DNA from: a virus
DNA length: 64,000 nucleotides
Strand: one strand, 5' to 3'
Virus record (IMG/VR): IMGVR_UViG_3300037418_002743
Span: 32,001-96,000 of that record
In this document: piece by piece, positions 8,070 to 35,254 of the stretch
Position numbering within the stretch: position 1 is the first letter of the stretch
Layout of the letters: each line of letters begins with the position of its first letter
Translations under genes and position numbers: made by a program
The notes under the pieces: generated by a model
What the model saw: only the letters and a program-made list of their open reading frames with translations
Told to the model about the DNA's origin: nothing
The model's database searches: none

Positions 8070-8087
8070 GTCTCTCCTCGGGAGGGA

Positions 8088-8109
8088 AGGGCCGCTGGCA
8101 GGCGGCTCT
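8088..8109 (-). promoter_or_regulatory. CUGCCA-loop leader hairpin
   Basis: AGAGCCGC-CTGCCA-GCGGCCCT, then TCCCTCCC and the RBS. Confidence 0.65.
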
Positions 8110-8178
8110 CTGTCTCTTGTCTACCCGGCGGCACCGACGGTTCCTCCGCCGACGCGCCGGGCCTTTCGTGGTATCTCC

Positions 8179-8206
8179 ACCGTACCGTATGACGCGGCAT
8201 CGTCAA
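8179..8206 (-). promoter_or_regulatory. Palindromic-spacer promoter copy
   Basis: TTGACG-ATGCCGCGTCATACGG-TACGGT. Confidence 0.65.
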
Positions 8207-8276
8207 CACTTATTAACAACGGTGCCGCCCCCGGCGGGTGCGGGGGCGGCGGGGAGCGGACGGTCCGGGCGCGGCC

Positions 8277-8468
8277 TCAGTGCCGCGCGAGTCGGGAGGC
8301 GAAGAGGTGGTGGTGCTTGACGGCGTGCACCGCGTGGCGGATGTGCTCGACGGTCTCGAAGTGCTCGGGGATCTCGACCAGCTCGAAGTGCAGGATCTCG
8401 ACGTGCAGGAGGTGGCCGAGGAGGAGGGTGGCCAGGAGGAGCAGGGCGGAGGCGATGCCGTTCGTCAT
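8277..8468 (-). CDS. Leaderless His-rich small membrane/secreted peptide
   Basis: MTNGIASALLLLATLLLG...; 11 His in 63 aa; promoter upstream and hairpin at about 8224-8250 downstream. Confidence 0.55.
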   Translation of the reverse strand: MTNGIASALLLLATLLLGHLLHVEILHFELVEIPEHFETVEHIRHAVHAVKHHHLFASRLARH

Positions 8469-8502
8469 GCCTTAAAGCTACCGCGCGGTGCGGTAGTTAC
8501 AA
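8469..8502 (-). promoter_or_regulatory. Palindromic-spacer leaderless promoter
   Basis: TTGTAA-CTACCGCACCGCGCGG-TAGCTT-TAAGGC-ATG. Confidence 0.75.
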
Positions 8503-8538
8503 GGGAAGGCGACGGCTGAGAACGAAGAAAAAGCCTGG

Positions 8539-8787
8539 TCACAGCCCCCTTGACGGGAGCGGCCCATGCTCGTCCGCGTGCCCCCGCGCCGCCTCCGCGT
8601 CAGCGAAGCCGAAGCAGAACGCCGCCTCGACGTCCGGGCCCCGACTCCCCCGCCGCCGGCGCGGTGACGGAGCCTCGACCATCAGCACCCACATCCAGCG
8701 GGAGCCGTCCGGCTTCACCCCGAGCCAGTCGCCGGACGGGAGGTCCCGCCGCCAGTACCCCGGCCGGACCTCCCGCCAGTCGGTCAC
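8539..8787 (-). CDS. Small Trp-rich hypothetical protein
   Basis: GTG at 8787 overlaps the upstream stop (VTDWREVRPGYW...). Confidence 0.5.
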   Translation of the reverse strand: MTDWREVRPGYWRRDLPSGDWLGVKPDGSRWMWVLMVEAPSPRRRRGSRGPDVEAAFCFGFADAEAARGHADEHGPLPSRGL

Positions 8788-9218
8788 GCGGGGCGGCCGT
8801 TGGCGTGCGACTCCCGCTCGAGCCGCTCCGCCGGCACGAGCTCCGCCTCCGAGTACGGGCGGCGCACAGCGGCGCGGCGGGCCTGCGCGGAGTGGTACTC
8901 GCGGAGGATCCGGGCCCGGTGCTCCCGGACCTCCGTCGGGAGCCAGTGCAGCTCGCAGGCGACGTTGAGCGGGATCCCCCGCGACTTCGCCCAGTTGGAG
9001 CATTCCGAAGGCCTGTGCGGCTCGTTGACGGAGCGGAGAGGGAGTTCCGGGTAGTGGTCACACTCGGGGCAGCACGGGGTGTGGTGCATCCCCGTGAGCC
9101 CCGAGAGGCATGCTGAGGGGAGCGACGCACACCCGGAGCAGGCCCGCAGGGTCGCGGCGGTCTCGGCGATGAGGATCGGGACGGCCGGCGCGGCGGGCGT
9201 CTCCTGGAGGACGGTCAT
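8784..9218 (-). CDS. Cys-rich hypothetical protein
   Basis: CSGC...CCPECDH...C; leader contains the CU box. Confidence 0.6.
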   Translation of the reverse strand: MTVLQETPAAPAVPILIAETAATLRACSGCASLPSACLSGLTGMHHTPCCPECDHYPELPLRSVNEPHRPSECSNWAKSRGIPLNVACELHWLPTEVREHRARILREYHSAQARRAAVRRPYSEAELVPAERLERESHANGRPA

Positions 9219-9300
9219 GGCAGTGGCCTTCTTCGGGAGGGAGTGAGGGGACGAAGAGGGCCCGGCGGCGGTTGGCAGACCGCGCCGGGCCCTTCGTGTG

Positions 9301-9507
9301 TCAGAGGCGGCGGGCGTTCATCCAGTCCGCGCCCCAGCGGGCGGAGCCCTCGGCGCAGAGTCGCAGCCACTGCTCGTTGTTGGTCGTGGCGACGGCGAGG
9401 GCGGCCTCGGAGCCGTCGGCGAAGGCGAGGTCCCGGGTCTCGGCGAGCCCGTCGGCCAGGGCTCCGGCCTCGGCGGCGGTGAGGTTCGCGGTCATCGTGT
9501 TCGTCAT
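9301..9507 (-). CDS. Leaderless small hypothetical protein (MTNTMT...)
   Basis: ATG 6 nt after the TATGGT -10 of the promoter copy at 9518-9534. Confidence 0.6.
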   Translation of the reverse strand: MTNTMTANLTAAEAGALADGLAETRDLAFADGSEAALAVATTNNEQWLRLCAEGSARWGADWMNARRL

Positions 9508-9547
9508 GTGTTCACCATACCGCGCGGTGCGGGAGCTGCAAGACCTT

Positions 9548-9904
9548 CTATCCGAGGATGTTCCGGCCGTCCGCATCCGCCTCGGCGAGGTAGCGCTGCA
9601 CGTCCTGGATCGCGTGCGCGGCGATGTCGAGGTCGAGGAGCCGACGCACCGGCTCCTTCTCCGCGTCGAGCGCGGCATCCGACACGGCCCGCACCGAGAC
9701 GCGCTCCATGCGGAGCAGGCGGGCCAGGGCGGCGTGTCCGCGCGTCGTCAGCTCCGCCTCGATGTCGACACGACGCCGGCGGGCGGACATCCGGCCCTCG
9801 GTGCGCAGGGAGTGAAGCTCGACGTCGTCGGCGGCCGCCTCCGCGGCGATCGCGGCCCGGTACTCGGCGACGGCGGCGGTGAGGGTGCGCACGGGTGCGG
9901 TCAC
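9548..9904 (-). CDS. Hypothetical helical protein
   Basis: RBS GAAGGAG; CUGCCA hairpin at 9934-9955. Confidence 0.65.
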   Translation of the reverse strand: MTAPVRTLTAAVAEYRAAIAAEAAADDVELHSLRTEGRMSARRRRVDIEAELTTRGHAALARLLRMERVSVRAVSDAALDAEKEPVRRLLDLDIAAHAIQDVQRYLAEADADGRNILG

Positions 9905-9992
9905 GGTGTTCTCCTTCGGGAGGGAAGACGGACGGCCGTGCTGGCAGGCGCGGCCCTCCGGGGTGAGCGTGAGCGGAATCGTGGGGAGTCGG

Positions 9993-10766
9993 CTATGACG
10001 CGGAGCGCACGTGAAGCTTCCCGTCCTCCCCGTGGACGAAGTGCCCGGACTCGCAGAGCTGGGCGATCACCGCGTCAATGCCGTCGGTGCGCTCCAGCAG
10101 GGTGGCGATCGCCGTCTTGCTCGTCCCGCCGTGCCACTCCCCCCGCTCGATCCGCTCCCTGATCTTCGCCACGGTCGCGGCGATGGCCCGCCGACGCTGC
10201 CCGCCGACGATCGCCGCGGCCTCCTCGAGCGACCGCGCCGGAGCGGGCCCGGGCTTCGTCTTGCGGTTGATGCGGTAGGTCTCGACCTGGCTGCGGAGCC
10301 AGTAGCCGTCGAGCACCGGGCGCGGGAAGCCGGTGTTGTCCCGGCCCGCCTTCCGGTCGGACTCCAGCTGGTAGACGCGCTGGCGGGTCACGCCCAGCTT
10401 CTCGGCGAACTCCGCGACGCTCACGACGTCCGGCATCGCGACGGCGTGGAGCCGCTGGGCCACTACCTCATCGGAGGTGAGCTCGACCTGATCCCAGCCG
10501 GTCACGCGGTAGCCGTGCCCGGCGAGGACGCCGACCAGGCAGTTCGCGGCGCGGGTGAGCCGACTGGGCAGCGCGGTGGGCGTGACCTCGTCGTCATCGT
10601 CAATGAGGACCTGGCCCTGCACGAGGTACGCGCCGTCCTGATCGTAGGAGCACATTCCGCCGATGAGCTGGGAGTCGGCAGCCCAGGCGCGGGACAGCGT
10701 CATGGCGGCGTCGGGGTGCATGGGGCGATCAAGGCGGACGCCGAGAGTCAGCGCGTGCGATGTCAT
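9993..10766 (-). CDS. AlpA/excisionase-like HTH protein with extra N-terminal domain (HicB-like antitoxin candidate)
   Basis: PDVVSVAEFAEKLGVTRQRVYQL...FPRPV...YWLRSQVETY; ATG at 10766. Confidence 0.65.
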   Translation of the reverse strand: MTSHALTLGVRLDRPMHPDAAMTLSRAWAADSQLIGGMCSYDQDGAYLVQGQVLIDDDDEVTPTALPSRLTRAANCLVGVLAGHGYRVTGWDQVELTSDEVVAQRLHAVAMPDVVSVAEFAEKLGVTRQRVYQLESDRKAGRDNTGFPRPVLDGYWLRSQVETYRINRKTKPGPAPARSLEEAAAIVGGQRRRAIAATVAKIRERIERGEWHGGTSKTAIATLLERTDGIDAVIAQLCESGHFVHGEDGKLHVRSAS

Positions 10767-10873
10767 GTCAGCATCATCCGGTGTCGCTTTCACATCGTCA
10801 AGCCGGGCTAGGTGCCCGGTTAGGCTGGCCGGGCGGCCGGGGGAGGGTCCCACTCCCCCGACCGCCCGTTCCC

Positions 10874-11131
10874 TCAGTTCATCCCCGGGTCGGGATCGCT
10901 CCCGAGCACCGGCCCCAGCCGGAACCACCTCGGCCCTTCCGCCTCCGCGAAGGAGGCGATGGCTGCCGCAAGCAGCAGCTCAAGCGCCTCGTCCTCGAGG
11001 ACGATCCGGGGGAGGTGCCATGCCGTGCCGGGTACCGCCTTGCTCTGGATCACCAGGTCCTCCTCGTTGAGGTGGAAGGTGTATCCGCGAGCGCGGAGCC
11101 CGAGGACGAACTGATCGGCCAGCTCAGTCAC
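10874..11131 (-). CDS. Hypothetical protein
   Basis: RBS AGAGGAG before GTG at 11131. Confidence 0.5.
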   Translation of the reverse strand: MTELADQFVLGLRARGYTFHLNEEDLVIQSKAVPGTAWHLPRIVLEDEALELLLAAAIASFAEAEGPRWFRLGPVLGSDPDPGMN

Positions 11132-11352
11132 TGAGCCGCTCCTCTCTGTTGAGTTATCGCTTACAAGAACTAACGTAAGTCTCGCGGGAGGGTCGCGCAA
11201 GACTTATCTACCGCGCTCTGCGGTAGCGTCCGCACCGTTGGATTGACGGGTAATTAGGACCATGACCTGCGTCAACCAGAGAGAGTCACCGCGTGAGGCC
11301 GGGCGGGTGATCCCGCACCTCCGTCGAGGGGACCGCCCGTCGCCGTCACCGC

Positions 11353-11634
11353 TCACCGGGCACGTTTGATCCCTGCCCGGTCCGCTACCGCCTCCCAGGA
11401 GTCCGCGTGCCCCTCCGCCTGCAGCGCCTGAGCGCGCCGGTAGAGCGCGACCTCGCGGTCCGCGGTCCTGTACTGCCGGGAGGCCGGATCCGCCCCGTCG
11501 CGGCGCGCTGTGGCGTCCCGGAGCCACTCCGCGATCCGCTCCGCCGGGTAGACGTGCGCGATGTTGAGCGCCTGCGCCTCCGCGGTGCGGGCCGCCCGCT
11601 CCGCCATGCGCTCCAGCGCGGTCTTCGCGGGCAT
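11353..11634 (-). CDS. Hypothetical protein
   Basis: MPAKTALERM..., coupled to the upstream gene. Confidence 0.55.
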   Translation of the reverse strand: MPAKTALERMAERAARTAEAQALNIAHVYPAERIAEWLRDATARRDGADPASRQYRTADREVALYRRAQALQAEGHADSWEAVADRAGIKRAR

Positions 11635-11831
11635 CACGCGCCCCAGATCGCGACGGCGGAGGCCTCGACGAGGACGGTGTGCCGCCCGTCGGTCACGTAC
11701 ACGCAGCCCTCGTGGGCGTGCGAGTGCACCTCGACGGGCGTGCCGACCATGATCACGCCGTACTTCTCGCCGGGCCGGGCGATCATGATGTCCCGGGTGG
11801 TCTCCCCCGCGAGCATCACCGGCGCGCTCAT
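11634..11831 (-). CDS. Small hypothetical protein (SH3-like beta composition)
   Basis: 65-aa ORF overlapping both neighbours. Confidence 0.55.
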   Translation of the reverse strand: MSAPVMLAGETTRDIMIARPGEKYGVIMVGTPVEVHSHAHEGCVYVTDGRHTVLVEASAVAIWGA

Positions 11832-12058
11832 CGCGCACCCGCCGCCGGGTAGAGCCGCGCCATCGTCGTGTGCAGCTCTCCGCCGTGGTCGCGGAGGCTC
11901 AGGCGCGCGAGCTCCTGGACGCGGCCGGTGTGCGGGGACCGGATCGAGAAGACCGCCTCGATGACGACGGGGGCGGGCGCGCCGGAGGGCATGGTCCAGC
12001 CGAGCGGGAGCAGCGCCTCCCAGCGGGGGGCGTGCGGGTCGAGGTCGGTGAGCTGCAT
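11828..12058 (-). CDS. Small hypothetical protein
   Basis: RBS GAAGGAG; CUGCCA hairpin at 12078-12103. Confidence 0.6.
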   Translation of the reverse strand: MQLTDLDPHAPRWEALLPLGWTMPSGAPAPVVIEAVFSIRSPHTGRVQELARLSLRDHGGELHTTMARLYPAAGAR

Positions 12059-12125
12059 GACGGTCTCCTTCGGGGAGGGCCGGGCGCTGGCAGGCGCCCG
12101 GCCGGCGGGAGGGATGAGGGGCGTG

Positions 12126-12476
12126 TCAGGCGGGGTCGACGCCGTAGACGACGGCGCCCGGGTACTCGTCCTCGAACGCCTCTCGGGCGGCGAGGGAGTC
12201 GACCGCGGTCACGGTGGCGATGTCGCGGATGGTGCGGCCGCGGGAGGTCTCGGTGCGGTACCAGACGCGGTAGGGCCGGGGGCCGTTCGCGGCGGCGGCT
12301 CGCTCGGCGGCGGTGAGTTCGTCGGCGATGTGGCCGATCGCGAGGGCGCCGACGGTGCCGGAGGCGACGAGGGCGGCGGCGGTGGCGCGGGCGGCGGCGG
12401 TGGCGCGGAGGTCCTCGCGGAGCTGGGCGGCGGTGCGGGAGGGAAGGGCGGAGGTGGCAGCCTCGGGGTTCGTCAT
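12126..12476 (-). CDS. Leaderless hypothetical protein (MTNPEA...)
   Basis: Promoter copy at 12487-12503. Confidence 0.65.
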   Translation of the reverse strand: MTNPEAATSALPSRTAAQLREDLRATAAARATAAALVASGTVGALAIGHIADELTAAERAAAANGPRPYRVWYRTETSRGRTIRDIATVTAVDSLAAREAFEDEYPGAVVYGVDPA

Positions 12477-12816
12477 GCGTTAACCATACCGCATGACGCG
12501 GTGAGCACAAGGGTGGCGACACCATTGCCGTTCCCCTCCGCACGTCCGGCCCCCATCTCGGTCCGCTCGGAGGGGTGCCATGCCTCCGCCCTTAGGCTTC
12601 CTAGTACGGCGATCAGGAGGGCTCGGGACGGCGTCAGGACGGCCGTCCGCTACTGGTGCACACGCGATGAAGGAGGACGTCTCTCATGACCCACAGACGG
12701 GCCCGGGCCCCGGCCCGGACAGTGAGATCGGGACCGCCCTGGTCCGGCGATCCCGATCTCGGCAAGACGCTCATCGGCACGATCAACCAGGCAGTTTCTC
12801 GAACGGAGGTCTCGCG

Positions 12817-13080
12817 ATGGCGAGAGTACGCAAGGAAGTCAAGCGGGTCGTGGCGCGGCTCCGGCCCACGACGGAGGCGGGCCCGATCGGGTGGCCGGAC
12901 GTGGCCCTGGGCGTGATCGCCCTGCTCGGGCCGCTGCTCGCGACCAGCACGACGGACCCGGCGGCGACGGAGCGGCTCGTGCGGATCCTCCGCTGGGTGT
13001 GCGCGCTCGTCTTCCTGGGCGCGGTCGCCGTGCTGGCGTACCGGCTCCCCTTCGGCGAGCTGGTCACGCTCCTGACCTGA
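12817..13080 (+). CDS. Small two-TM membrane protein
   Basis: RBS GGAGG, two hydrophobic segments, hairpin at 13098-13134. Confidence 0.55.
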   Translation: MARVRKEVKRVVARLRPTTEAGPIGWPDVALGVIALLGPLLATSTTDPAATERLVRILRWVCALVFLGAVAVLAYRLPFGELVTLLT

Positions 13081-13175
13081 CCCGCCCCGCTCCGGCGCGA
13101 AGGCCCGTCCCCTCTCCCGTGGGGCGGGCCTTCGTCGTGGGGCCGGCGGCTCCCCGAGGAACTTCGACCCGATCT

Positions 13176-13295
13176 TCAACGACGTCGGGCGGCGGCGCGG
13201 AGGTCCCGCAGCTCCGCAAGCTCGGCGTCGGTGAGCCCGCGCCGGCGCATCAGGGCCTCGAGGTCGTCGAGGCGGTCGAGGTCGTCGAGGTCCAT
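13176..13295 (-). CDS. 39-aa peptide (MDLDDLDRLDDLEAL...)
   Basis: Strong leader CCCTCCCGAAGGAGACCGTCATG; below the ORF-track size cutoff. Confidence 0.5.
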   Translation of the reverse strand: MDLDDLDRLDDLEALMRRRGLTDAELAELRDLRAAARRR

Positions 13296-13325
13296 GACGG
13301 TCTCCTTCGGGAGGGGCCGGAGCGG

Positions 13326-13547
13326 CTAGAAGCCGCGGTAGGCGTCCTTGACCGCCTCGAATCGATCCCGGAACTCGTTCATGACGCGGAGGTCGCGGCG
13401 GAGCAGGCGGCCGCGCTCCGGGGTCACGACGCCGTTGGGGATCTCGCGGAGCAGGGCGCAGAGGCGCTTGTGCTCGGCCCAGAGGTCGGTGATGGAGAGG
13501 GTGGAGGGGCGGCCGGTGGTCTTGCGGGGCTTCGTGGTGTTCGTCAT
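13326..13547 (-). CDS. Leaderless small hypothetical protein (MTNTTK...)
   Basis: Promoter copy at 13558-13574. Confidence 0.65.
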   Translation of the reverse strand: MTNTTKPRKTTGRPSTLSITDLWAEHKRLCALLREIPNGVVTPERGRLLRRDLRVMNEFRDRFEAVKDAYRGF

Positions 13548-13679
13548 GCGTTAACAATACCGCGCTACACGGTAGTTACAAGGGCTGTAGAGCGAGACCG
13601 GTAAAGAAATAACGCGGCCCGGTCCCCCACCAGCCGAGGACCGGGCCGCTCTACCGGCGGGACGCCGCCGGGGCTCACA

Positions 13680-14072: not shown

Positions 14073-14165
14073 CGAGGTCTCCTTGGTTCGGGAGGGAAGG
14101 GGCCGCTGGCAGGCGGTCCGTCTTACGTTGTTGAGCTTACCGCGGTGCGCGGTGAGTACAAGGGC

Positions 14166-14390
14166 TTATGCCCAGGTGGTTCGGGCCGGGATCTCGACGC
14201 CGTACCGGCGGCCGAGGGCGTGCACGGCGGCCTCGTCGGCGACCCGCTTCGTCCAGAGGTGCACGCCGCCGGTGGCGTTGTAGGCGTCGACGATGAAGCG
14301 CTCGTAGTAGGGGTTCCAAGTCACGTAGGCGAAGGGGAGGGCCGGGGTGCCGTCGTCCTCGATGTCCGGGGTGATGGTGTTCGTCGTCAT
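14166..14390 (-). CDS. Leaderless small hypothetical protein (MTTNTI...)
   Basis: Promoter copy at 14401-14417. Confidence 0.65.
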   Translation of the reverse strand: MTTNTITPDIEDDGTPALPFAYVTWNPYYERFIVDAYNATGGVHLWTKRVADEAAVHALGRRYGVEIPARTTWA

Positions 14391-14420
14391 GACTTCACCA
14401 TACCGCAGCATGCGGGAGGA

Positions 14421-18228: not shown

Positions 18229-18284
18229 GGCGGTCTCCTTCGGTCGGGAGGGAACGGGTGGCGCCCTGGCAGGGGCGGGGAGGG

Positions 18285-19615: not shown

Positions 19616-19694
19616 GACACGTCCAGGGGTAGGGAGGGACGGGGCGTGCCGCCCGGCTGGCAGGCCGGGCGGCACGATCGTGCTGAGGGGGGTT

Positions 19695-20600
19695 CTACCG
19701 CAGCGCGTCGGGCGCCGCACCCGCCAGGGTGAGCACCTCCGGCCGGAAGAGACCCAGGAGGCGGGCGATCTCGCGCTGCCAGGCGGCCTGCTTCACGAGC
19801 GGGACCTGCTGCAGGCGGATCCCGACCCCGACGCGGCCCTCGGTGTCGACGTCCCACTGCGTGACGGCCTCGACCTCGAACGGCTCCTCGTCCGGCTCCG
19901 CGCCCTGGTAGACGTGGAGCGCGACCTTGAAGCGCGGCGGGAGCTTCGCCGCCCGCGGCACCTTCTGCCCGCGGACCTCCTCGGTGTAGGTGATGTTCAC
20001 CTGCCCGGAGTCGAGGTCGACGTCCTCCTGCGTGGTCTTCACCCGCGACGCGACGAGCTGCATGGCGGCGTCGATCATCCGGGACACGTCCGTGCCGCGG
20101 ATGCTGTGCGCGTGATCGGCGAGGAACTGCCCGAAGGCCTTCTTCGTCATCAGGCGGCCGCCCTGGGAGGCGTCGACCTTCTGCCAGGCGAGCCACTCCT
20201 CGTCGTACTGCGGGAGGAACACCGCGCGGTGGTCCCGCCAGCCGGGCAGCTCCTCCCCGATGCCGGAGTCGACGAGGGTCCGGGTGTGGTCGTTGAAGAC
20301 CGCGGTGATCCGGGTGCGGCCCTGGTCGGCCCACACGGTGGTGCCGAGGTCGGCGAGCCGGTTGACGTACGCGGCGAAGGAGCGGGCGGTGTGCAGCTCC
20401 GCCTCCCCGCGCGCCTCCCGCGGCGACGGGAGCAGCGCCCCGAAGTCGTGGTGCCCGATCCGCTCGTCCTGACGGAGCCGGCGGACGACCAGGCCCTCGG
20501 GGTGGTCGTTGATGTCGATCGGGGAGGCGGCCGCCTCGGCGGCGCGGCGGGCGACGTCCGCGGTGACGGCGGCGTCAGGGGCGTTGTCGAACTCGGACAT
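19695..20600 (-). CDS. DUF2303 (YfdQ-like) family phage protein
   Basis: SFAAYVNR...ITAVFNDH...PGWRDHRAVF...EEWLAW...FGQFLADH. Confidence 0.75.
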   Translation of the reverse strand: MSEFDNAPDAAVTADVARRAAEAAASPIDINDHPEGLVVRRLRQDERIGHHDFGALLPSPREARGEAELHTARSFAAYVNRLADLGTTVWADQGRTRITAVFNDHTRTLVDSGIGEELPGWRDHRAVFLPQYDEEWLAWQKVDASQGGRLMTKKAFGQFLADHAHSIRGTDVSRMIDAAMQLVASRVKTTQEDVDLDSGQVNITYTEEVRGQKVPRAAKLPPRFKVALHVYQGAEPDEEPFEVEAVTQWDVDTEGRVGVGIRLQQVPLVKQAAWQREIARLLGLFRPEVLTLAGAAPDALR

Positions 20601-21013
20601 CACAGCTGACCTCCACCGAACGGAAGGGCGGTCTGGTTCTTCGGGATCGGCGGGTAGTCGAGGAGCTCGCCGCCCTCGCCGAGCCAGTACTTCGCCCGGG
20701 TCTCCCGGTTGACCTTCGGGTGCTTCACGTCGACGTCGTCGTCGACGACCAGGCGGCCGCCGAAGGAGTCGCCGGGCGCCCAGGAGAACTTGAGCTTGAG
20801 GGTGATCGCCCCGGCGTTGGTCGTCTCCTGCACCTCCCCGATGACGGTCGCGAGGGCCTCGGTCAGCTCGTCGCACAGCTCGCCGTAGCGGGCGAGGAAG
20901 GCGAGGAAGTCCTCCTTGGCCTTCTCCGTGGCGGCGGGCTGCTCGTCGGCCCGCTGCTCCGGCACGGCGGCGGAGGCGGCGGTGCCGTCCTCCGGCTGGG
21001 GGTTGTCGCTCAT
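20600..21013 (-). CDS. Small partner protein upstream of DUF2303
   Basis: ELTEALATVIGEVQETTNAGAITLKLK...VKHPK pattern. Confidence 0.65.
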   Translation of the reverse strand: MSDNPQPEDGTAASAAVPEQRADEQPAATEKAKEDFLAFLARYGELCDELTEALATVIGEVQETTNAGAITLKLKFSWAPGDSFGGRLVVDDDVDVKHPKVNRETRAKYWLGEGGELLDYPPIPKNQTALPFGGGQL

Positions 21014-21185
21014 GCGGTGTTGATCTCCATCTTCTTCATCGGGAGGGATGGGGTCTGGGGGGTGTCCTCCGGGACATCCGCGCCGGTGCCGCAGGGGCAC
21101 GACGCGGGGCAGTCGTCCCGGGAGGACGCCAGGAGGGCGGAGGCGGCGCGGTCGAAGACCGCGCGCACCTCCCGCCCGATGAGGC

Positions 21186-25108: not shown

Positions 25109-25291
25109 CGTCTTCTTCTCTTAGGGAGGGAAGGGACATTTGACGAAGCCCTGACGTGGACCAACGGGTTGGCAGACCCGCCGCGCGGGGCTTCGTCGCT
25201 TTCTACGATCACTCTACCGCTGTTCGCGGTAGCGTCAACACCTTTCTTTCTCGCCGCTAGCCGGCGGCAGGGTGTTTCTCCTGGTCAGACC

Positions 25292-26189: not shown

Positions 26190-26653
26190 GCCTCAGCCCT
26201 CCGGGGGCGCGGGGAGGGCACGCGCACGGTCTCCGCGTCGGCGCTCGGCGCGGGCTCCGGCTCCGGCTCCGGCTCCGCGACGGGCGCGGGCTGCGTCGGA
26301 GCGGGCTCCCCGTTGTGGATCACCCACTGGACGCCGTCGATCGTCCCCTGCAGCAGGATGTGCGGGGAGTCCTCGTAGACCGTGACCAGCGGGCGCGGGG
26401 AGAACAGGACCGACCAGCCGAGGACCGTCGCGGTGTCCATGACGGCCGTACATCCATGTTCGGTCACATCCACGCTGATCGGGTCACCAAGGTTCTGAAG
26501 AGCCGCCGCCTCCGCTACCCTTGCCGCGGCAACGAGGCGATCACCGAAAGAGGCGGTTTGATCCCTATCCTTACTGCTAGTGTCCGCCTCGGTACGGTCG
26601 GGAGTCTTACGCGACTCACTAGTAGTTCCGCTGGACATTCCGCCGACGTTCAT
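26186..26653 (-). CDS. Hypothetical protein
   Basis: RBS GAGAGGA; CU box and CUGCCA hairpin (26719-26734) upstream. Confidence 0.6.
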   Translation of the reverse strand: MNVGGMSSGTTSESRKTPDRTEADTSSKDRDQTASFGDRLVAAARVAEAAALQNLGDPISVDVTEHGCTAVMDTATVLGWSVLFSPRPLVTVYEDSPHILLQGTIDGVQWVIHNGEPAPTQPAPVAEPEPEPEPAPSADAETVRVPSPRPRRAEA

Positions 26654-26744
26654 AGAGCGTTCCTCTCAACGGGAGGGATGGTGGATGGGACATCCGGCCC
26701 CTGGATGGTTCGGCCGGTGGCGCTGGCAGGCGCCGGGGGTTAGA

Positions 26745-29324: not shown

Positions 29325-29507
29325 CGGGGTTCCTCCTCGATCCGGGGGCTTCGCTCTGTGCGGTGCCCTTGCGATGACTCAAAGATACCGCGCTACACGG
29401 TAGGTACAAGGGCTGACGGGCAGAAAAACGAGCGGCCCGGGTGGTTCGCCCTGCTGGACGAGCCCACCCGGGCCGCTCTCCCCTTCCTCCGCTCCCCAGC
29501 GGAAGCC

Positions 29508-29855: not shown

Positions 29856-31450
29856 CACTCGCCTCCGTCCACGGTCGTCATCCAGTAGCCCTCGAAGCAC
29901 TCCCCGCACGTCGCGCGGTCGTCGTCCTCGTTCTGCCAGCTCTGGTTCGTCGTCGCCCCGCACTTCGGGCACGGGCCCGGGTCCCCGTCGCCGGAGCCCT
30001 TCGCGATCTCGCGGATCCGCTCCGCGGTCAGCTCCTCGCCGTTGACCTCCACGACCCAGTAGCTCGCAGCCTCCCCGTCCGGGGTGTCCGCGGGCACGAT
30101 CCGGAGCAGCGGGACGCCATCGACCGCGGCCCCGATCGCCTGCGCGGCCTCGTCATCGGACTCGAACCGGCGGCACTCCTCGCACCGCTGGATCTCGTTG
30201 CGGTTGTTGAAGCCCGGCCAGGCGCCCGGAACGACCTCCGCGTAGCACTCGCAGTCAGCCTCCGCCTCGGCCGCAGCCTCCGCGCCGGCGTCGATGATGA
30301 ACTGCCCCGCGGCGGAGTCGGAGAGCACACCGAGCACCCCGACCTGGACGTCCGGCACCGCGCCGGCGTACTGGTCCCGCCGCTCCTCGGTCCCGAAGCC
30401 GACCAGGTCGTCGACCCCGTCACGCCAGGCGAGCCAGACCGTCGGCGGCTCCCCCGGCTCCGGCCGGGCCGCGAGCGCCCGGATCCGGTCCTTGATCTCC
30501 GCGGTGAGCCGGTCCGTGCCCTCCGCGCCGAGGTAGAGCCTCGCCGGATCGCGCGGCACCCCGACGCGGCCGTCCGCGGCCCGGGCGAACAGGTCGATCC
30601 CGACCGCCTCCGCCAGCTCCCGGAGGTGCCGGCGGTGCGCCATGCTCTCGTCCCGCCAGCGGTCCCGGAAGTCGTCGGCCGGGTGCTCCAGGACGACGTT
30701 CCGGAGGAAGCTCGCAGCCTCCCCGTACACCTCGGACATGGTGTCGTTCTCGACGTCGTCGGAGTCCTCGACCTCGTCGACGTGCGTGTCGGCCGATGCC
30801 TGGGCCCAGATCGCCGCCTGCGCGGCCAGCGCGCCGCGCAGGGAGTCAGCGGGCGGGGCGTCGGTCAGGTCCGCCACCGCGGCCGCCAGGCGCGGCAGGA
30901 GGTCCCGCCGCACGGTCACCCGCACCTCCGCCGTAGCGGTCCGGGCGCCCTCGTAGGTCAGCTGCTCGTCGACCTCGACCCGCGCCAAGACCGGCCGGTT
31001 GGAGTCGCCCGCGTAGATGTTGCCCTTGTCGGTCGTCGTGACCTCCCCGAGCGGGGCGAGCAGCCGGGCGGCCGCGTCGACGTAGGTCTGCCGCTCGGCC
31101 GCCCGCGCGTCGGCGGCAGCCTTCTTCGCCCGGACCTCAGCGAGGGATCCGCGGTAGCGCGCGAGCAGCCGGTTCTTGATGTCCTTCGCCATGACCGCCG
31201 GGGGCTTCTCCGCGGAGAACCCGATCTCGGTCCAGAGCCGCGAGAACCCGCGCAGCTCCGCCGGGGTCACCCCGGTGGCGGTCACCCGGCCCCTGTCCCA
31301 CTGCAGCCGGATCCGCTCCCCGTCCGGGCCGACGAGCGCGGCCTCCCGCTCCCAGCCGGTCTCGCCTTCCTCAGCGGACCACTCCGCCGGGTCGAGCTGC
31401 TCCGCGATCGCCTTCGCGACCTCGTACGGGGTCGCCGTCTCCGTGCTCAC
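29855..31450 (-). CDS. Large multidomain hypothetical protein with Zn ribbons
   Basis: GTG at 31450; CEC...RCEEC and CPKC...CGEC motifs. Confidence 0.65.
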   Translation of the reverse strand: MSTETATPYEVAKAIAEQLDPAEWSAEEGETGWEREAALVGPDGERIRLQWDRGRVTATGVTPAELRGFSRLWTEIGFSAEKPPAVMAKDIKNRLLARYRGSLAEVRAKKAAADARAAERQTYVDAAARLLAPLGEVTTTDKGNIYAGDSNRPVLARVEVDEQLTYEGARTATAEVRVTVRRDLLPRLAAAVADLTDAPPADSLRGALAAQAAIWAQASADTHVDEVEDSDDVENDTMSEVYGEAASFLRNVVLEHPADDFRDRWRDESMAHRRHLRELAEAVGIDLFARAADGRVGVPRDPARLYLGAEGTDRLTAEIKDRIRALAARPEPGEPPTVWLAWRDGVDDLVGFGTEERRDQYAGAVPDVQVGVLGVLSDSAAGQFIIDAGAEAAAEAEADCECYAEVVPGAWPGFNNRNEIQRCEECRRFESDDEAAQAIGAAVDGVPLLRIVPADTPDGEAASYWVVEVNGEELTAERIREIAKGSGDGDPGPCPKCGATTNQSWQNEDDDRATCGECFEGYWMTTVDGGE

Positions 31451-31812
31451 TGCTGGGTCGCCCCCTCGTCGATCGTCAGCCGGTCCCACGGGTCGGGCTC
31501 GACCACCCGCACCTCCGGCTCCGGCTCCTGGTCGCGGATCTCCTCGAGCACCGTGCGGACGTCGGTCAGCACGCCGTAGACGTCCATGACGGACGTCGTG
31601 ATCGCCTCGACGTCGCGCTCCTGCCACTCCCGGTTGATCCCGAGCCAGTCCACGTGCTCCTTCACGACCCGACGCACGAGCCGGCCCTCCGCGCGGCGGT
31701 AGAGCGCACGGCGGGCGAGGAGGTCACCGGCGACGACCGCGGCCGCCCAGCCGGCCGGCGGGACGGCCCGGACCGCCCGGGCGGCCACCTGGGCGATCAG
31801 CCGGGCGTTCAC
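31447..31812 (-). CDS. Hypothetical protein
   Basis: GTG at 31812, coupled to its neighbours. Confidence 0.55.
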   Translation of the reverse strand: MNARLIAQVAARAVRAVPPAGWAAAVVAGDLLARRALYRRAEGRLVRRVVKEHVDWLGINREWQERDVEAITTSVMDVYGVLTDVRTVLEEIRDQEPEPEVRVVEPDPWDRLTIDEGATQQ

Positions 31813-32564
31813 TGCGCACCGCCCGCGGGCGCGGCCGGCGTGGTGGCGAGCCGGTAGACCTGCCACTCCCAGATCCGCCCGCGGGCGGACACGGTCAGCC
31901 CGTGGCCCGGGATGCCGTGCTCGACGTAGAGCCGCCACCCGCGGGGCGTGAGCCACTCCCCGAGGATCCGGATCCCCTCCGCGCGCTCGTGCGCGATGTC
32001 GCGGGCGTCCTTGCCGAGGTACTTCGGGCCCTCGAACTCCAGGTCGTCGATCTGGACGTGGCCGGCGCGGCGGTCCCAGATCACGTCGTGCAGCACGGGC
32101 GGCCGGACGACGTCGCCCGCCGGGTACTGCCGGAAGGCCTCCGCCCACGGCGTTCCGAGCTGGCGCCCGAGCTCGCGCACCCGCGCGGCGTCGGTGTCGT
32201 ACTTGGCGAAGATCTTCTTGATCTGGCTGCTCGTCAGGGTCGGGTCGCCGGCGTCGTCGCAGCTCGCCTCCCAGGTCCCCAGCTCGGGGGTGTGCCGGAA
32301 GATCCGGCCGGGGTCCCCATCGCGGGTGACGCCCTGCCACACCTCCCATGCGCACGTCGACAGCGTGGGCGCCAGCGCGGCGCAGATGTCGAACGCGGCG
32401 CCGGTGGTCGTCGAGCCGTCCTCGGCCCGGTACTCCTCGCCGAGGCGGATCCCGTCCTCGTCCGGGCCGGCGAGCCCGTACTCCTCGATCGCGTCGAGGA
32501 AGGTCTGCGCGTACCAGGGCGGGCACTGGTAGACGGTGAGCCCGCAGTTGATCGAATCGGCCAT
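31809..32564 (-). CDS. DUF3145-like protein
   Basis: RHTPELGTW...DDAGDPTL...LGRQLGTPWAEAF resembles the actinobacterial DUF3145 C-terminal half. Confidence 0.55.
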   Translation of the reverse strand: MADSINCGLTVYQCPPWYAQTFLDAIEEYGLAGPDEDGIRLGEEYRAEDGSTTTGAAFDICAALAPTLSTCAWEVWQGVTRDGDPGRIFRHTPELGTWEASCDDAGDPTLTSSQIKKIFAKYDTDAARVRELGRQLGTPWAEAFRQYPAGDVVRPPVLHDVIWDRRAGHVQIDDLEFEGPKYLGKDARDIAHERAEGIRILGEWLTPRGWRLYVEHGIPGHGLTVSARGRIWEWQVYRLATTPAAPAGGAQ

Positions 32565-32721
32565 GAGGGGCCGCTCTCCTTCGGGTGGGAGGGATGGGGA
32601 TGGTGGCCCCTGGCAGGGGGCCGTCGTGCACTCACTACGTTACCGCGTTATGCGGCGGAGTCAATCGGCATAAGGGTGATGCGCCCCGGCCGGGCCTTTC
32701 GCGGCCCGGCCGGGGGGTCGA

Positions 32722-33774
32722 TCAGACCAGCGACTTCGCCCGCGGGCGGAAGGCGGCGAAGGCGTCAGCCTTGAGCTGGAAGCCCTTGCCGTCGACCGCG
32801 GAGAGCGACCGGGCCGTCATCTTCGCCGTCGCGCCCTTGCCGGTCGCGGCCGCGAAGTGGTCGATGTACTCGGTGACCGCGTTGTAGCCAGCCCAGCGGG
32901 TCCCGGCGACCTTCGCCTGCGTGTCCGCCTCGGTAAAGAGCTGGATGAGGGTGCGGTCCCGGACCTTCTTCGTGCTCTGGGTCGTCGGGGAGTCCGAGTC
33001 CCGGACCGGCTCGAAGACCGTGTTGACGATCTTGGTGAACTCGTCGACGGAGAGCGCGGCGTCGAGCATCCGCTCCGCCTCCGCCTGGAAGGCCTCGTTG
33101 AACTTGAAGGTCATGGAGAGGGCCTGGCGCGCCTCCTCGACCGCCTTGCTGGCCTTCTTGGTGTGGCGGGTCGCCCACTTCTGGCGGGCGGAGGCGATCG
33201 CCGCGGCCTCCGTGTTCGCGCAGACGACCCGGACCGGAGAGGCGACCGCCATCAGCGCGCGGGTGCCGTCGTGCCCGTTCATCGTCGTGACGAAGGTGTC
33301 GATCGCGTCGACCCCGCCGATCAGCATCTGCTCCGGCAGCTTCGCGCAGTAGAAGACGTGGCGGCCGTTGCGGAGCGCGCCGGCGGTCTCGATGAAGCGG
33401 GCGCCGGACATGTCCAGCAGCGCCTCGAGGAACTCGCCGTGCTCCTCGTTCTGCACGTGGTGATAGCCCGCGCCGACGACGCCGAGCCGCTCGGTCTTGC
33501 CGCTGACCGGGTTCGTCCGGACGACGCCCTTCCACTCCGGGAAGTCGACGTCCTCGGAGGTGACGCCATCCTCGGAGATCAGAGTGTCCGTCCCGGCGAG
33601 GTCGATCTTGCGGACGTTCCAGCCGGCGAGGTGGGCCTTCTCCATCGCCTCGACGACGGTCATCGGGCGGTCGAAGACGGTGCCGAGCCGGTGCCAGGCG
33701 GGGACCCGGGCGGAGACGAAGTGGTCGACCGTCGTGCCGTCGGAGGCGGTGCTGCGGGCGATCTCGTGGCTCAT
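32722..33774 (-). CDS. DUF932 (TIGR03299 phage/plasmid-like) protein
   Basis: PAWHRLG...LGVVGAGY..VQNEE...ETAGALRNGR...NGHDG...PVRVVCANT...GTRWAGYNAVTEY. Confidence 0.9.
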   Translation of the reverse strand: MSHEIARSTASDGTTVDHFVSARVPAWHRLGTVFDRPMTVVEAMEKAHLAGWNVRKIDLAGTDTLISEDGVTSEDVDFPEWKGVVRTNPVSGKTERLGVVGAGYHHVQNEEHGEFLEALLDMSGARFIETAGALRNGRHVFYCAKLPEQMLIGGVDAIDTFVTTMNGHDGTRALMAVASPVRVVCANTEAAAIASARQKWATRHTKKASKAVEEARQALSMTFKFNEAFQAEAERMLDAALSVDEFTKIVNTVFEPVRDSDSPTTQSTKKVRDRTLIQLFTEADTQAKVAGTRWAGYNAVTEYIDHFAAATGKGATAKMTARSLSAVDGKGFQLKADAFAAFRPRAKSLV

Positions 33775-33999
33775 CTTGTACTCCAGGGAGGGAAGGGGGG
33801 TGGCCCCGCCGGGGAGGCGGTGCCGTCGTGCAACACAGAGATTACCGCGCCGCGCGGTGTTGTCAACGGATGACGAGAAGATTTTTCTGCGGGGGCTCCG
33901 CGCCGGCGCCGGAGCCGCACGTCAGGGCACGAAAAAGGGGGAGGGCCCGCCGGCACGGATGCCGGGGGCCCTCCCCCTGAGACGCTCTCTGCGCGGCGC

Positions 34000-34593
34000 C
34001 TACGCGGTCTTCTTCTGGTCCTCCGCCTGCTCGGCGTTCCACTTCTCGAGGAGCGCCTTGCCCTCCTCGGTCGGGACGACCTTCCCGCCGACCGGCGGGA
34101 CCTCGATCATCTTCGCCCGCTGCAGGTCGGTGAACTGCCGGGTGTTCGCCCGGTTCTGCGCGGTCCCGGTGAACGGCTCCCCGTCGCGAAGCACCCGGAC
34201 CTGCATGTCCTGGATCTCGACGGTGAAGCGGCCCGCGGCGATCTCGGAGAGCACCTGGTGCCGCATCGGGGTCCGGTGCGTGATGTCGCGGTGCCAGGCG
34301 CCCGGGCCCTTGCGGTCCGCGTTGAACTTCTCGACCGCGTCCATGTCGTACTCCTTCTCCCCCGTCTGCGGGTTGAAGCCGGGGAGAGGCTTGGGCGCGC
34401 CGAGCTGGGAGACCATGCGCCGGTACGTCGAGGCGCTGACGCCCTTGGGGCTCTTGTCGGTCACGCACGCGGCACCGGCGTCCGCGGCGTTGCCGCGACG
34501 CACGCCGTTCTCGTCGGTCCAGATGGTCACGGTGCTACCGCCCTTCGGTGATGCGTCGATCGCGGTCGATGGTACCGCGTGAGGACGGCTCAT
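34000..34593 (-). CDS. Putative DNA-binding protein (MerR-like HTH plus wHTH)
   Basis: GVSASTYRRMVSQLGAPKP...YDMDAVEKF; C-terminal LQRAKMIEV...PTEEGKALL. Confidence 0.6.
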   Translation of the reverse strand: MSRPHAVPSTAIDASPKGGSTVTIWTDENGVRRGNAADAGAACVTDKSPKGVSASTYRRMVSQLGAPKPLPGFNPQTGEKEYDMDAVEKFNADRKGPGAWHRDITHRTPMRHQVLSEIAAGRFTVEIQDMQVRVLRDGEPFTGTAQNRANTRQFTDLQRAKMIEVPPVGGKVVPTEEGKALLEKWNAEQAEDQKKTA

Positions 34594-34805
34594 CGTTGTA
34601 CGTCTTCGTTGACACGCTCGAGGGAGAACAGTCCGGGCAGACCGACCTCCGCCGCTCCGGTCGCGAGGACCTGCTGGGCGCGGCGCCAGCGGAACCGCTC
34701 CGTCGCCGGAGCGTCCGCGGCAAGCTCCCCGATCTCGCGGGCGACGCGGAGCAGGACGGAGGCGATCCGGTCCGCCTCCGCCTGCACCTCCGGCGCGGTC
34801 ACCAC
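34590..34805 (-). CDS. Small hypothetical protein
   Basis: 71-aa ORF coupled to its neighbours. Confidence 0.5.
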   Translation of the reverse strand: MVTAPEVQAEADRIASVLLRVAREIGELAADAPATERFRWRRAQQVLATGAAEVGLPGLFSLERVNEDVQR

Positions 34806-34950
34806 CGCTCCGTGACGTCCCAGTCCAGCTCGGCGCCGTGCTCGGTCATGACGTCGGCGACCGCCGCGCGGACCGCGTCGAGCACGGCCGGCGGGAGCGG
34901 CTCGGAGGTGGACACGGTCAGGTCGTACTCGTAGCCGAAGGACAGGCCGC

Positions 34951-35205
34951 TCATGCCTGCGCCTCCTCGTCCTCGTCGTGCGGGCCGTAGGTCATGCGGG
35001 CGTCGGAGGCGATGCCCCAGGCGACGGCGAACAGCGTCGCAGGCCAGAGGAGCATCACGACCAGGCCGACGATGACGTGCAGCGGGTGGACGCGGTCGAG
35101 GCGACCGGTGTCGGGGTCGCGGAGCAGCCAGCGGTAGCAGGCGGCGACGAAGACGGATCCGGTCATGCCGGCGCCGAGCAGGTACGTGGCGAGTGCCGGG
35201 GTCAT
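34951..35205 (-). CDS. Small two-TM membrane protein
   Basis: MTPALATYLL...; RBS GGAGG; promoter copy at 35255-35271. Confidence 0.6.
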   Translation of the reverse strand: MTPALATYLLGAGMTGSVFVAACYRWLLRDPDTGRLDRVHPLHVIVGLVVMLLWPATLFAVAWGIASDARMTYGPHDEDEEAQA

Positions 35206-35254
35206 GGTGTCCTCCGGGAGGGAAGCGGTCGTACGTGGCAGATGCGGACGACCA

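Follow-up and report, generated by a model that had tools for sequence, protein, structure and literature searches.

The window analysed here is a 64,000-nucleotide stretch of the 105-kb record of an uncultured soil actinobacterial phage-plasmid, in which nearly all genes lie on one strand. Coordinates are those of the window, and features are on the minus strand unless marked (+). A preliminary description had listed eleven minus-strand hairpins sharing the loop CTGCCA (CUGCCA in the RNA); all 11 are present, each with that loop, at positions given in this paragraph. The order it proposed, hairpin, then CCCUCCC box, SD and start codon, is seen at a number of these. The hairpin at 8088–8109 (loop 8096–8101), which begins at about +6 of the predicted transcript, is followed by a box at 8080–8086, an SD and the GTG at 8069 of a DUF7574 gene. 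Other promoter-proximal hairpins are found at 14100–14119 (loop 14107–14112; box 14090–14096, SD, ATG 14072), at 19645–19676 (13 bp, loop 19658–19663; box 19632–19638, ATG 19615 of an HTH gene), at 25162–25183 (loop 25170–25175; an 8-bp core within a longer imperfect stem, with the box about 40 nt downstream at 25124–25130) and at 32605–32622 (loop 32611–32616; box 32587–32593, SD, ATG 32564 of a DUF3145-like gene), and the hairpin at 26719–26734 (loop 26724–26729) precedes a box about 45 nt downstream (26671–26677) and the ATG at 26653. About ten hairpins start 4–15 nt from transcription starts predicted from the promoter consensus, a placement also compatible with roles in stability, processing or antitermination. 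Several others are intercistronic, directly 3′ of stop codons, and some lie deep within operons: the long hairpin at 9251–9297 (loop 9273–9278) stands right behind the stop of leaderless gene 9301–9507, the hairpin at 9934–9955 (loop 9942–9947; 7 bp with one mismatch) leads to a box at 9918–9924 and the GTG at 9904, and those at 12078–12103 (loop 12088–12093, 10 bp) and 18262–18277 (loop 18267–18272) have boxes on either side, at 12107–12113 and 12073–12079 and at 18278–18284 and 18246–18252, respectively. The proposed order fails at the weak hairpin at 12451–12464 (loop 12455–12460, 4 bp), which occupies codons 4–10 of leaderless gene 12126–12476; the neighbouring box (12437–12443) is likewise coding, which rules out a role linked to the SD at this gene and makes a function connected with the 5′ part of the transcript the better fit. 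The copy described as degenerate near 35227–35253 retains the hexamer, at 35236–35241, and lacks a convincing stem; it would occupy about +3 to +8 of the transcript as predicted, with an unpaired probability of 0.84, and is followed by a box at 35216–35222 and the ATG at 35205.

The original list, although its entries are real, was incomplete: it lacked copies with loops at 2997, 5958, 6425, 9218 and 46083 (+), as well as six outside the window. These five, together with the copy at gene g28235, are the hairpins that contain a start codon (n = 6). Hairpin 2992–3007 (stem 5 bp) lies across the AUG of gene 2413–2997, the last base of its loop (2997–3002) being the A of that AUG; an imperfect hairpin at 5953–5968 (loop 5958–5963; 17.5 bits) spans the AUG of gene 5662–5958; hairpin 6419–6436 (loop 6425–6430, stem 6 bp, loop unpaired probability 1.0) spans that of zinc-ribbon gene 5994–6425; and a second imperfect hairpin, 9213–9228 (loop 9218–9223), spans that of gene 8784–9218. 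The sole plus-strand hairpin, 46079–46092 (+), holds the UUG start of the plus-strand parA gene in its stem (CUUG/CAAG), and its loop forms codons 2–3, so that the only copy on the other strand is also in the sense orientation, in agreement with the strand specificity first proposed. The sequence CUGCCAUG occurs at the starts of five genes in the phage and of whiB in a relative described below; five of these six starts fold into a hairpin whose 3′ arm is built from codons 1–2, and in 6/6 start-adjacent cases the A of CUGCCA is the A of AUG.

In the whole-genome hairpin tally of the 105-kb record CUGCCA is the most frequent hexaloop. Perfect CTGCCA hairpins with stems of at least 4 bp number 18 on the minus strand and 1 on the plus strand, imperfect copies being additional, and with stems of at least 5 bp the count is 13 to 0; the expectation from 200 dinucleotide-preserving shuffles is 0.53 ± 0.69, with a maximum of 3. 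Such hairpins are therefore far from being as common on the opposite strand or in shuffled sequence, two of the comparisons by which the preliminary description had proposed to judge them. The hexamer forms a hairpin loop at 18 of 38 minus-strand CTGCCA sites against a background of 2.4% (binomial P = 1.6e-19). A genome-wide scan for loop variants with one mismatch found almost none, and the loop is identical in 31/31 aligned copies, whereas the stem arms have no common sequence. The claim of an invariant loop on covarying stems is borne out, in that the stems are unrelated and compensating: 91–94% of stem cells are paired compared with 48% in shuffles, and covariation is seen at all five stem pairs (38–61 double-change cells), counts that are partly circular because the instances, paralogous copies plus one independent relative, were picked as hairpins. 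At the 24 sites that the gene list assigns to noncoding sequence or a TIR, CUGCCA has a mean unpaired probability of 0.80, compared with 0.38 for random hexamers.

Fixed-centre inverted repeats fold in single-stranded DNA as they do in RNA, the phage encodes a DNA methylase, and strand bias alone cannot separate the direction of transcription from that of replication because nearly all genes are on one strand. A DNA-level signal, either a hairpin extruded in single-stranded DNA (for replication, transfer or a phage N4-type promoter) or a double-stranded site for a binding or modifying protein, is nevertheless highly improbable, given that the plus-strand copy is sense-oriented on the start codon of parA, that placement follows SDs and start codons, and that a double-stranded site needs no flanking repeats of arbitrary sequence. 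Outside the hairpin context, moreover, CTGCCA has little strand bias overall (38 minus, 31 plus).

The second word, TCCCTCCC, is present in 32 copies on the coding (minus) strand and 1 on the plus strand, with the consensus CCC-W-TCCCTCCC; the exact 8-mer occurs 32 times and the runner-up independent pyrimidine 8-mer 12 times. Boxes form the cores of C-run tracts, and the distance from box to SD is 0–16 nt in 27 leaders. Boxes preceding an SD are found at 3018–3024 (gene 2413–2997), 5974–5980 (gene 5662–5958), 6449–6455 (gene 5994–6425) and 48617–48623 (a minus-strand gene in the 48.2–48.6 kb stretch). Another lies ahead of gene 42154–42522 (42553–42559), and one behind a stop codon upstream of gene 52221–52517 (52578–52584). 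The boxes at 13309–13315, directly followed by GAAGGAG with an ATG near 13293, and at 21041–21047, upstream of gene 20600–21013, have no hairpin; in the leader of a DUF932 gene (box 33786–33792) the upstream hairpin has another loop, UCCCC. The preliminary description placed the box a short distance downstream of the hairpin; the spacing varies between 3 and about 50 nt, with an inverted order at five genes, and hairpin and box are separable modules. The CCC-W-UCCCUCCC box includes the anti-SD core CCUCC, yet box and SD are predicted to pair weakly (mean probability 0.29) and cannot pair at those leaders where the box abuts the SD, and the box is predicted to be mostly unpaired (mean 0.56).

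The element is retained in a related phage, a 24-kb metagenomic sequence merged from L223, L210 and L207 whose proteins are 40–61% identical. There too the top hexaloop is CTGCCA (9 against 1 on the other strand), TCCCTCCC occurs 9 times against 0, and the promoter-operator is the same. The hairpin is also retained, on another stem, in the leader of the whiB ortholog, and in the ortholog pair REL 13016/g28235 one phage has the hairpin ahead of the box, the other on the AUG. Downstream of whiB a noncoding stretch carries two boxes and 2–3 tandem CUGCCA hairpins, an array that is syntenic in both phages. This retention in a diverged relative supports the regulon-like set first proposed. The composite pattern gives 2 matches against 6 control matches in 401 Actinomycetes genomes, and the hairpin 14-mer 25 against 55 control matches in 47 Mb; the 105-kb phage by itself has 5 copies. 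The element is absent from the sampled actinomycete genomes and from a related Amycolatopsis phage-plasmid; it is not a host feature.

Positions near 5′ ends and between cistrons would suit hairpins acting as 5′ or intercistronic stabilisers or insulators, with the largely unpaired box serving as an unstructured standby or S1 landing site and the fixed sequences being an optimal or inherited solution with no specific reader. Protein S1 binds polypyrimidines, which the pyrimidine box suits. We regard such a factor-independent structure as unlikely: a passive role needs neither six invariant loop bases accompanied by stem turnover nor an exact 8-mer repeated 32 times, and neither loop nor box has changed in the relative, despite protein divergence to the extent noted. 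Hairpins beginning 6–15 nt into a transcript are, in addition, poor protectors of the 5′ end against RNase E and RNase J.

No known family accounts for the element. A search of the whole window against Rfam at gathering score returned no match, nor did one of 2000–36000 at E ≤ 1. An intrinsic terminator was rejected, since no minus-strand CUGCCA hairpin has a U-tract and the 3′ flanks are C-rich; neither a terminator nor an Rfam family fits, and a match to a known terminator family was a further point on which the preliminary description had proposed to judge the hairpins. That description offered three functions, a boxB/nut-like antitermination signal, an RNase processing site and a translational operator, and its interpretation is supported in part: strand and sense orientation, loop invariance and the regulon-like set stand, and the three functions fare differently.

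Under antitermination, a boxB- or put-like hairpin would modify RNA polymerase behind early promoters, and the box would be a rut-like entry site for Rho. Like lambda nut/rut and HK022 put, the hairpins just downstream of predicted promoter-operator starts (the ten or so noted above) lie close behind early promoters, and C-rich tracts flank the hairpins with loops at 12088 and 18267 on both sides, as in the lambda arrangement rutA-boxB-rutB; Rho prefers unstructured C-rich RNA, and the C-rich, G-poor box tract suits that preference. A boxA (CGCUCUUUA-like) is lacking, however: one match with a single mismatch was found in 64 kb, not close to any hairpin, compared with 2.75 by chance. The loop is the same hexamer in every aligned copy rather than a GNRA-like pentaloop, and there are about 20 sites rather than 1–2, or one per operon. 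Some cassettes have terminators of their own, such as the 14127–13614 unit, closed by a canonical terminator at 13649–13614 whose loop differs from CUGCCA; six copies are on start codons and several are deep within operons; and the box is tied in position to the SD, not to the hairpin. Because of the missing boxA and pentaloop, the number of sites and the cassettes with their own terminator, a lambda-type nut site was rejected, and antitermination is the least favoured of the three options and improbable overall. A scan for basic stretches found no clear N-terminal arginine-rich motif of an N-like protein, most proteins being without a family.

A processing site is somewhat unlikely, though better supported. 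A RegB-like or MazF-like phage endoribonuclease would cut in or beside single-stranded CUGCCA, maturing or inactivating early messages, and a cut before the A at CUGCC/AUG would yield leaderless mRNAs. Strict recognition of a single-stranded word is typical of the MazF and RegB families, and the hexamer is strictly invariant and kept single-stranded, as for nucleases specific for such RNA. The coincidence of its A with that of AUG, the many phage genes predicted to be leaderless (ATGACGAAC at the predicted transcription start) and the intercistronic copies directly behind stop codons are consistent with cleavage. T4 RegB sites (GGAG) are likewise short invariant single-stranded words at the translation initiation regions of early genes, but the RegB word is the SD itself, and both the nuclease and the cleavage are hypothetical for CUGCCA. 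Against processing, CUGCCAUG genes retain a good SD 9–14 nt upstream, superfluous for a leaderless product, and among about 80 phage proteins scanned, most of them without any family, no RNA-binding or RNase domain and no nuclease candidate was found.

A translational operator is the best fit of the three options, given the six hairpins that contain a start codon. A start codon within the hairpin is the MS2-type arrangement, a resemblance that would be functional only. MS2 and PP7 operators likewise combine a sequence-specific loop, in PP7 also a hexaloop, with a start codon that lies in the stem or beside it; there, however, an RNA phage has one such site, which its coat protein reads and which needs a bulged A, whereas the present element has about 20 sites in a dsDNA phage, mostly upstream of the SD, and no conserved bulge. 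In CsrA/RsmA regulation many leaders carry a short loop motif in unrelated hairpins at or near the SD, as here, and the tandem hairpins behind whiB in both phages, possibly a noncoding RNA, recall CsrB/RsmZ decoys. A CsrA/RsmA site (GGA core, SD overlap) was rejected: the loop is CUGCCA, not A(N)GGA, the SD is outside the hairpin at most sites, and the array would only by inference be a separate RNA. To our knowledge CsrA is absent from Actinobacteria.

RNA readers were also considered. A mimic of the tRNA-Gly(GCC) anticodon arm was rejected, as a 7-nt loop is expected and that of the element has 6 nt and begins with C; tRNA-Gly in five actinomycete genomes reads ...CC-TTGCCA (U32 U33 GCC A37), with only UGCCA in common. 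A phage-encoded antisense RNA with the loop UGGCAG or GGGAGGG was not found: the two phage tRNA genes, tRNA(CUA) and tRNA-Gln(CUG), have no such loop, and in a census of gaps by word no noncoding gap was clearly complementary to minus-strand messages. A few gaps do contain the words, and one pair of them belongs to the box/anti-box terminator at 33939–33975.

A close published parallel in pattern is found in Cluster K actinobacteriophages, where the SAS is a 13-mer (GGGATAGGAGCCC) located 3–8 bp upstream of the start and including the SD, and the ESAS is a pair of conserved, imperfect 17-bp inverted repeats whose spacer varies, for which the authors doubt an RNA hairpin (PMC3203893, PMC12699233); reported in 2011 (PMC3203893), they had yet to be given a tested function by 2025 (PMC12699233). 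Both systems consist of short phage-private motifs in a single orientation that immediately precede the starts of some of the non-structural genes, and in both about half of the sites have an additional inverted repeat upstream. Identity was nevertheless rejected: there is no sequence similarity, the box is C-rich, anti-SD-like and upstream of a separate SD, and here the arms vary and compensate around an invariant 6-nt centre, the opposite of the ESAS pattern.

Our preferred reading, held tentatively, is that single-stranded CUGCCA is an operator through which a putative, probably phage-encoded reader controls translation initiation of early genes; we infer the reader's existence, its identity and the direction of its effect. 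CUGCCA would have to be displayed single-stranded, which in GC-rich RNA the hexaloop of any stable hairpin would do. The reader would be a trans-acting, sequence-specific factor, most likely an RNA-binding protein of the phage because host-type genomes are without the element; against this reading, no candidate emerged among the roughly 80 phage proteins scanned. Binding at or near the translation initiation region would jointly set how well some 20 messages are translated and, as a secondary effect, how stable they are. At the six genes whose start codon is part of the hairpin, a bound reader or the stability of the hairpin itself could directly block the 30S subunit, as in the MS2 operator, and hairpins 20–60 nt upstream would act on the neighbouring ribosome landing site. 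The box would be a second, separable signal, either a modest SD mask in cis or a pyrimidine landing or recognition tract, and the array behind whiB may be a CsrB-like decoy that titrates the reader. Because two fixed RNA words mark starts and a distant relative keeps both, CUGCCA and CCCUCCC look like an undescribed post-transcriptional control system acting at about 20 to 30 early-gene starts.

The window spans bases 32001–96000 of the virus record. This record, a 105,275-bp assembly of 72% GC from a rhizosphere metagenome, carries ∼160 genes, nearly all on the minus strand according to our own GC3-based gene calls, including those for capsid, portal, tail sheath, tape measure, RecT/YqaJ, WhiB, Lsr2, RusA, integrase, ParA and a TraB-like product. 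All 11 hairpins of the preliminary description exist on the minus strand with the loop CTGCCA (CUGCCA in RNA); at the twelfth site, 35236, regarded there as a degenerate copy, the hexamer is present but a real stem is absent. CTGCCA is the commonest hexaloop of the whole genome, in which hairpins with this loop and at least four perfect pairs number 18 on the minus strand versus 1 on the plus strand (13 versus 0 with at least five pairs), compared with 0.53 ± 0.69, maximum 3, in 200 dinucleotide-preserving shuffles. The minus strand has 38 CTGCCA sites, and 18 of them are loops, whereas the background rate is 2.4% (P = 1.6e-19); there are nearly no one-mismatch versions of the loop. The strand specificity on which the element had been proposed is borne out by these comparisons.

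The six loop columns are invariant in loop-centred alignments of 21 and then 31 copies, and the five closing pairs are 91–94% paired, compared with 48% in shuffles and 27–49% when slid. Two-sided changes occur at every one of the five closing pairs, in agreement with the covariation claimed earlier, although the pairing and covariation count is partly circular because the aligned copies were picked as hairpins, and weight is therefore carried by the enrichment test. A covariance model finds 19 copies scoring at least 21.6 bits, all on the minus strand of the phage genome, and none in 143 kb of control actinophage and phage-plasmid DNA. The predicted probability that CUGCCA is unpaired averages 0.80 over the 24 sites classed as noncoding or translation initiation region by our own gene list, versus 0.38 for random hexamers. 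This pattern requires that the six bases, their unpaired state and their sense orientation at or near translation starts are all under selection while the stem sequence is not, which argues that a sequence-specific partner reads the word CUGCCA in single-stranded RNA; the hairpin would merely display this word in a GC-rich transcript.

Hairpins, named here by loop start in window (w) or genome (g) coordinates, fall into three positional classes. About 10 are promoter-proximal (for example w8096, w14107, w19658, w25170, w32611, g24216 and g30139), beginning 4–15 nt past the start, itself predicted, of a TACCGCG-N-CGCGGTAnnnT promoter-operator. Others are intercistronic, directly after a stop codon (w9273, w9942, w12088, w18267 and w26724). 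The third class lies on the start codon and reads CACUGCCAUG (w2997, w5958, w6425, w9218 and g28235); in these five genes the motif ends on the A of AUG, and codons 1–2 form the 3′ arm. In the sole plus-strand hairpin, the 5′ arm includes the UUG with which parA, itself a plus-strand gene, begins; hairpin orientation is thereby shown to follow that of the gene rather than the strand of the replicon. A DNA-level signal is a very improbable explanation of the element. Virion-gene modules contain no copies. The preliminary description also placed, as the usual case, a Shine-Dalgarno (SD) sequence and start codon downstream of the hairpins, an arrangement that fails at w12455, where a leaderless gene contains both the hairpin and its pyrimidine box within codons 1–15.

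The promoter-operator occurs within window 6482–44767 as a −35 followed by TACCGCG-N3-5-CGCGGTA overlapping a TAnnnT −10, in ∼22 minus-strand and several plus-strand copies (for example 14127–14165, 32630–32668 and 25204–25240). Leaderless starts are found on the minus strand of the window at 8468, 9507, 12476, 13547, 14885, 15262 and 44766; in these small genes the initial ATGACGAAC coincides with the predicted transcription start, 7 nt past the −10, and the genes form self-contained cassettes.

Minus-strand copies of the box, CCCUCCC within the 8-mer TCCCTCCC, number 32, compared with a single plus-strand copy; no other pyrimidine 8-mer comes near this frequency, and the box has an extended form, CCC-W-TCCCTCCC. 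In 27 leaders it lies 0–16 nt 5′ of an SD-like sequence and 10–30 nt from the start codon. The order hairpin then box proposed earlier is observed where the hairpin stands 3 to ∼50 nt 5′ of the box, but at five genes the order is box, SD, hairpin. Because spacing varies, the order is reversed at those genes and the box is found both with and without a hairpin, the two are separable modules. Although the anti-SD core CCUCC is part of the box and could pair with the SD over 4 bp at suitable spacing, structure prediction gives this pairing a mean probability of 0.29, and a general role as a cis switch masking the SD was rejected, since pairing is too weak and is sterically impossible at the several sites where box abuts SD. 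For these reasons the box is treated as a putative separate recognition or landing tract. A passive structure combined with a pyrimidine standby site is, given an invariant loop on variable stems, rather unlikely. Two further occurrences were observed. A bidirectional terminator at window 33939–33975, with a stem made from GGGAGGG and CCCTCCC and a T-run on the minus strand, is among the few places transcribing the box complement. The DUF932 leader (window 33832–33795, minus strand) has promoter, initial GCACGACGG and box as in the 32630 leader, and its hairpin has the loop UCCCC, not CUGCCA.

Several known kinds of signal were compared with the element. The hairpins all lack a U-rich tail, the loop of the canonical terminator of the region differs, and Rfam returns no match at the gathering score or at E ≤ 1, so that membership of a known terminator family, raised earlier as a possible undoing of the proposal, does not apply. 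A nut- or put-like antitermination signal, in which the C tract would be rut-like, is quite improbable; boxA was not found. A composite pattern searched in 401 Actinomycetes genomes gives 2 matches versus 6 for the reversed control, with 6 in the phage alone, and a hairpin 14-mer gives 25 matches versus 55 for the control in 47 Mb, with 5 in the 105 kb of the phage; the element is not a host-genome feature. Mimicry of the tRNA-Gly(GCC) anticodon was rejected because the actinomycete anticodon loop reads UUGCCA within a 7-nt loop, and a strand bias arising from Type III restriction avoidance was rejected because CTGCCA overall is found 38 versus 31 times. No partner RNA that could act as an antisense reader was found among the tRNA genes and noncoding gaps of the phage surveyed. 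The universally conserved 16S stretch GGGAGGCAG exactly complements CUGCC followed by UCCC(G), a match that simple arithmetic predicts for ∼1 in 10 motif pairs and that is thus near chance level; its rRNA site is off the mRNA path. Of four 16S genes examined, a single one has GGGAGGGA at the h44 tip, which is structurally remote. Both complementarities (positions 338–346 and 1437–1444 of the actinomycete 16S rRNA L318) are probably coincidences, and 16S pairing was set aside as an explanation.

Among the sequencing runs listed for the phage, none was of RNA. Contigs from four soil and rhizosphere runs represent strains ∼98–99% identical to the phage. Hairpins are hit by none of the 40 SNPs listed among them, a count that is uninformative either way given 597 further differences outside that list. 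A 38.5-kb contig of similar identity from another soil run skips or replaces window 11209–11353, 12390–13318 and 14145–14384, in one case with 20 other letters substituted. Its breakpoints adjoin promoter cassettes and the box at 13309, which suggests that strains exchange genes cassette by cassette. Outside the window, ARAGORN identifies two tRNAs. One, of 85 nt at genome c[12318,12402], has a long variable arm and the anticodon CUA of amber-suppressor type; the other, a tRNA-Gln(CUG) at genome c[15773,15848], may mark attP because it adjoins the integrase.

A metagenome scan for hairpin plus box returned, among the matches listed, mostly chance occurrences and at least three overlapping contigs (L223, L210 and L207), which join to give 24,019 bp of sequence from a related phage. 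Few genes align between the two phages (71–80% DNA identity), and their proteins are 40–61% identical. In this one independent relative, to which the conservation comparison is confined, the most frequent hexaloop is once more CTGCCA (9 sense versus 1 antisense), TCCCTCCC occurs 9 versus 0 times, and the shared promoter-operator appears as TTGACAataCCGCG-N-GCGGTAAGNT. At the orthologous whiB genes, promoter, CUGCCA hairpin, box and SD are all present in either phage, and the two stems are unrelated; the relative has an additional CUGCCAUG at the start. In another ortholog pair the hairpin precedes the box in one phage and lies on the AUG in the other. As a control, pAmyja1 (NZ_CP008954.1; L164/L165), a 92.5-kb circular tailed phage-plasmid of Amycolatopsis japonica with a 45% identical portal, WhiB, many small genes and a similar one-strand layout, lacks the system, with neither hexaloop nor box enriched, as do control loci found by RecT alignment (40–47% identity). 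This closest named relative found hints at a host of Pseudonocardiales or Streptomyces type. INPHARED gave no useful near or distant phage relatives; IMG/VR scans with the composite, promoter-plus-leaderless, hairpin 14-mer and promoter-operator patterns gave chance matches only, and the few IMG/VR contigs with two CUGCCA-loop hairpins occur at about the chance rate. A Streptomyces linear plasmid reached through the tail sheath was rejected as a relative, since it proved to be a usual plasmid that carries a contractile injection system.

Outside the window, a 700-nt noncoding stretch 3′ of whiB contains two boxes and then three tandem CUGCCA hairpins ∼50 nt apart (genome 23270–23480, minus strand; window −8730 to −8520; L041:3270-3480), and the syntenic noncoding place in the relative contains two boxes and then two tandem hairpins. 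This array may represent a decoy RNA or else the long structured leader that precedes a 335-aa gene.

Host-type genomes lack the word and no antisense RNA encoded by the phage was found, so that a phage protein appears the likeliest reader; Pfam and PHROG scans of ∼80 proteins returned WhiB, Lsr2, RusA, RecT, YqaJ, a DEDD exonuclease, a methylase and HTH proteins, and no RNA-binding or RNase family as a candidate. Because six copies contain the start codon, as in the MS2 and PP7 operators, CUGCCA would be a site at which translation initiation is controlled, and its reading there by a sequence-specific partner is the preferred explanation, tentatively, at somewhat less than an even chance. The exact phasing of CUGCC with AUG and the heavy use of leaderless starts also make a RegB- or MazF-like processing site attractive, if unlikely. 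The loop motif common to many leaders and the possible tandem-hairpin decoy recall CsrA/CsrB. A bolder, distinctly unlikely extension of translational control is a phage-private code, made up of CUGCCA and box, that includes a titration circuit: the single-stranded word plus the box would be read by a factor of the phage or by the ribosome, early phage messages would gain a separate initiation channel, and the conserved RNA downstream of whiB would be a CsrB-like sponge timing the switch. The near-chance complementarity to GGGAGGCAG of 16S rRNA bears on this reading.

The closest concept is that of the start-associated sequences (SAS/ESAS) of Cluster K mycobacteriophages, whose function is still untested (PMC12699233). 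They differ from the present element in sequence and in position relative to the SD, and the ESAS design, unlike that found here, has conserved arms and a variable spacer. The searchable literature yielded no mention of the CUGCCA loop or CCCUCCC box in phages, and the element is provisionally classed as a cis-acting leader operator or start-associated motif forming a new RNA motif family. We know of no Hfq, CsrA or ProQ in actinobacteria, and to our knowledge post-transcriptional control in actinobacteriophages is almost unexplored. With its ∼20 natural copies, its naturally swapped stems as controls and its conservation in a relative, the putative operator offers a handle for finding a new RNA-binding regulator or nuclease, and the combination of a fixed-loop hairpin with an anti-SD-like box may provide orthogonal expression-control parts for Streptomyces engineering. 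The element would be a second, structurally clearer case of the unexplained start-associated sequences of mycobacteriophages, and it could explain how a phage-plasmid coordinates dozens of small accessory-gene cassettes beyond the level of repressor and operator.
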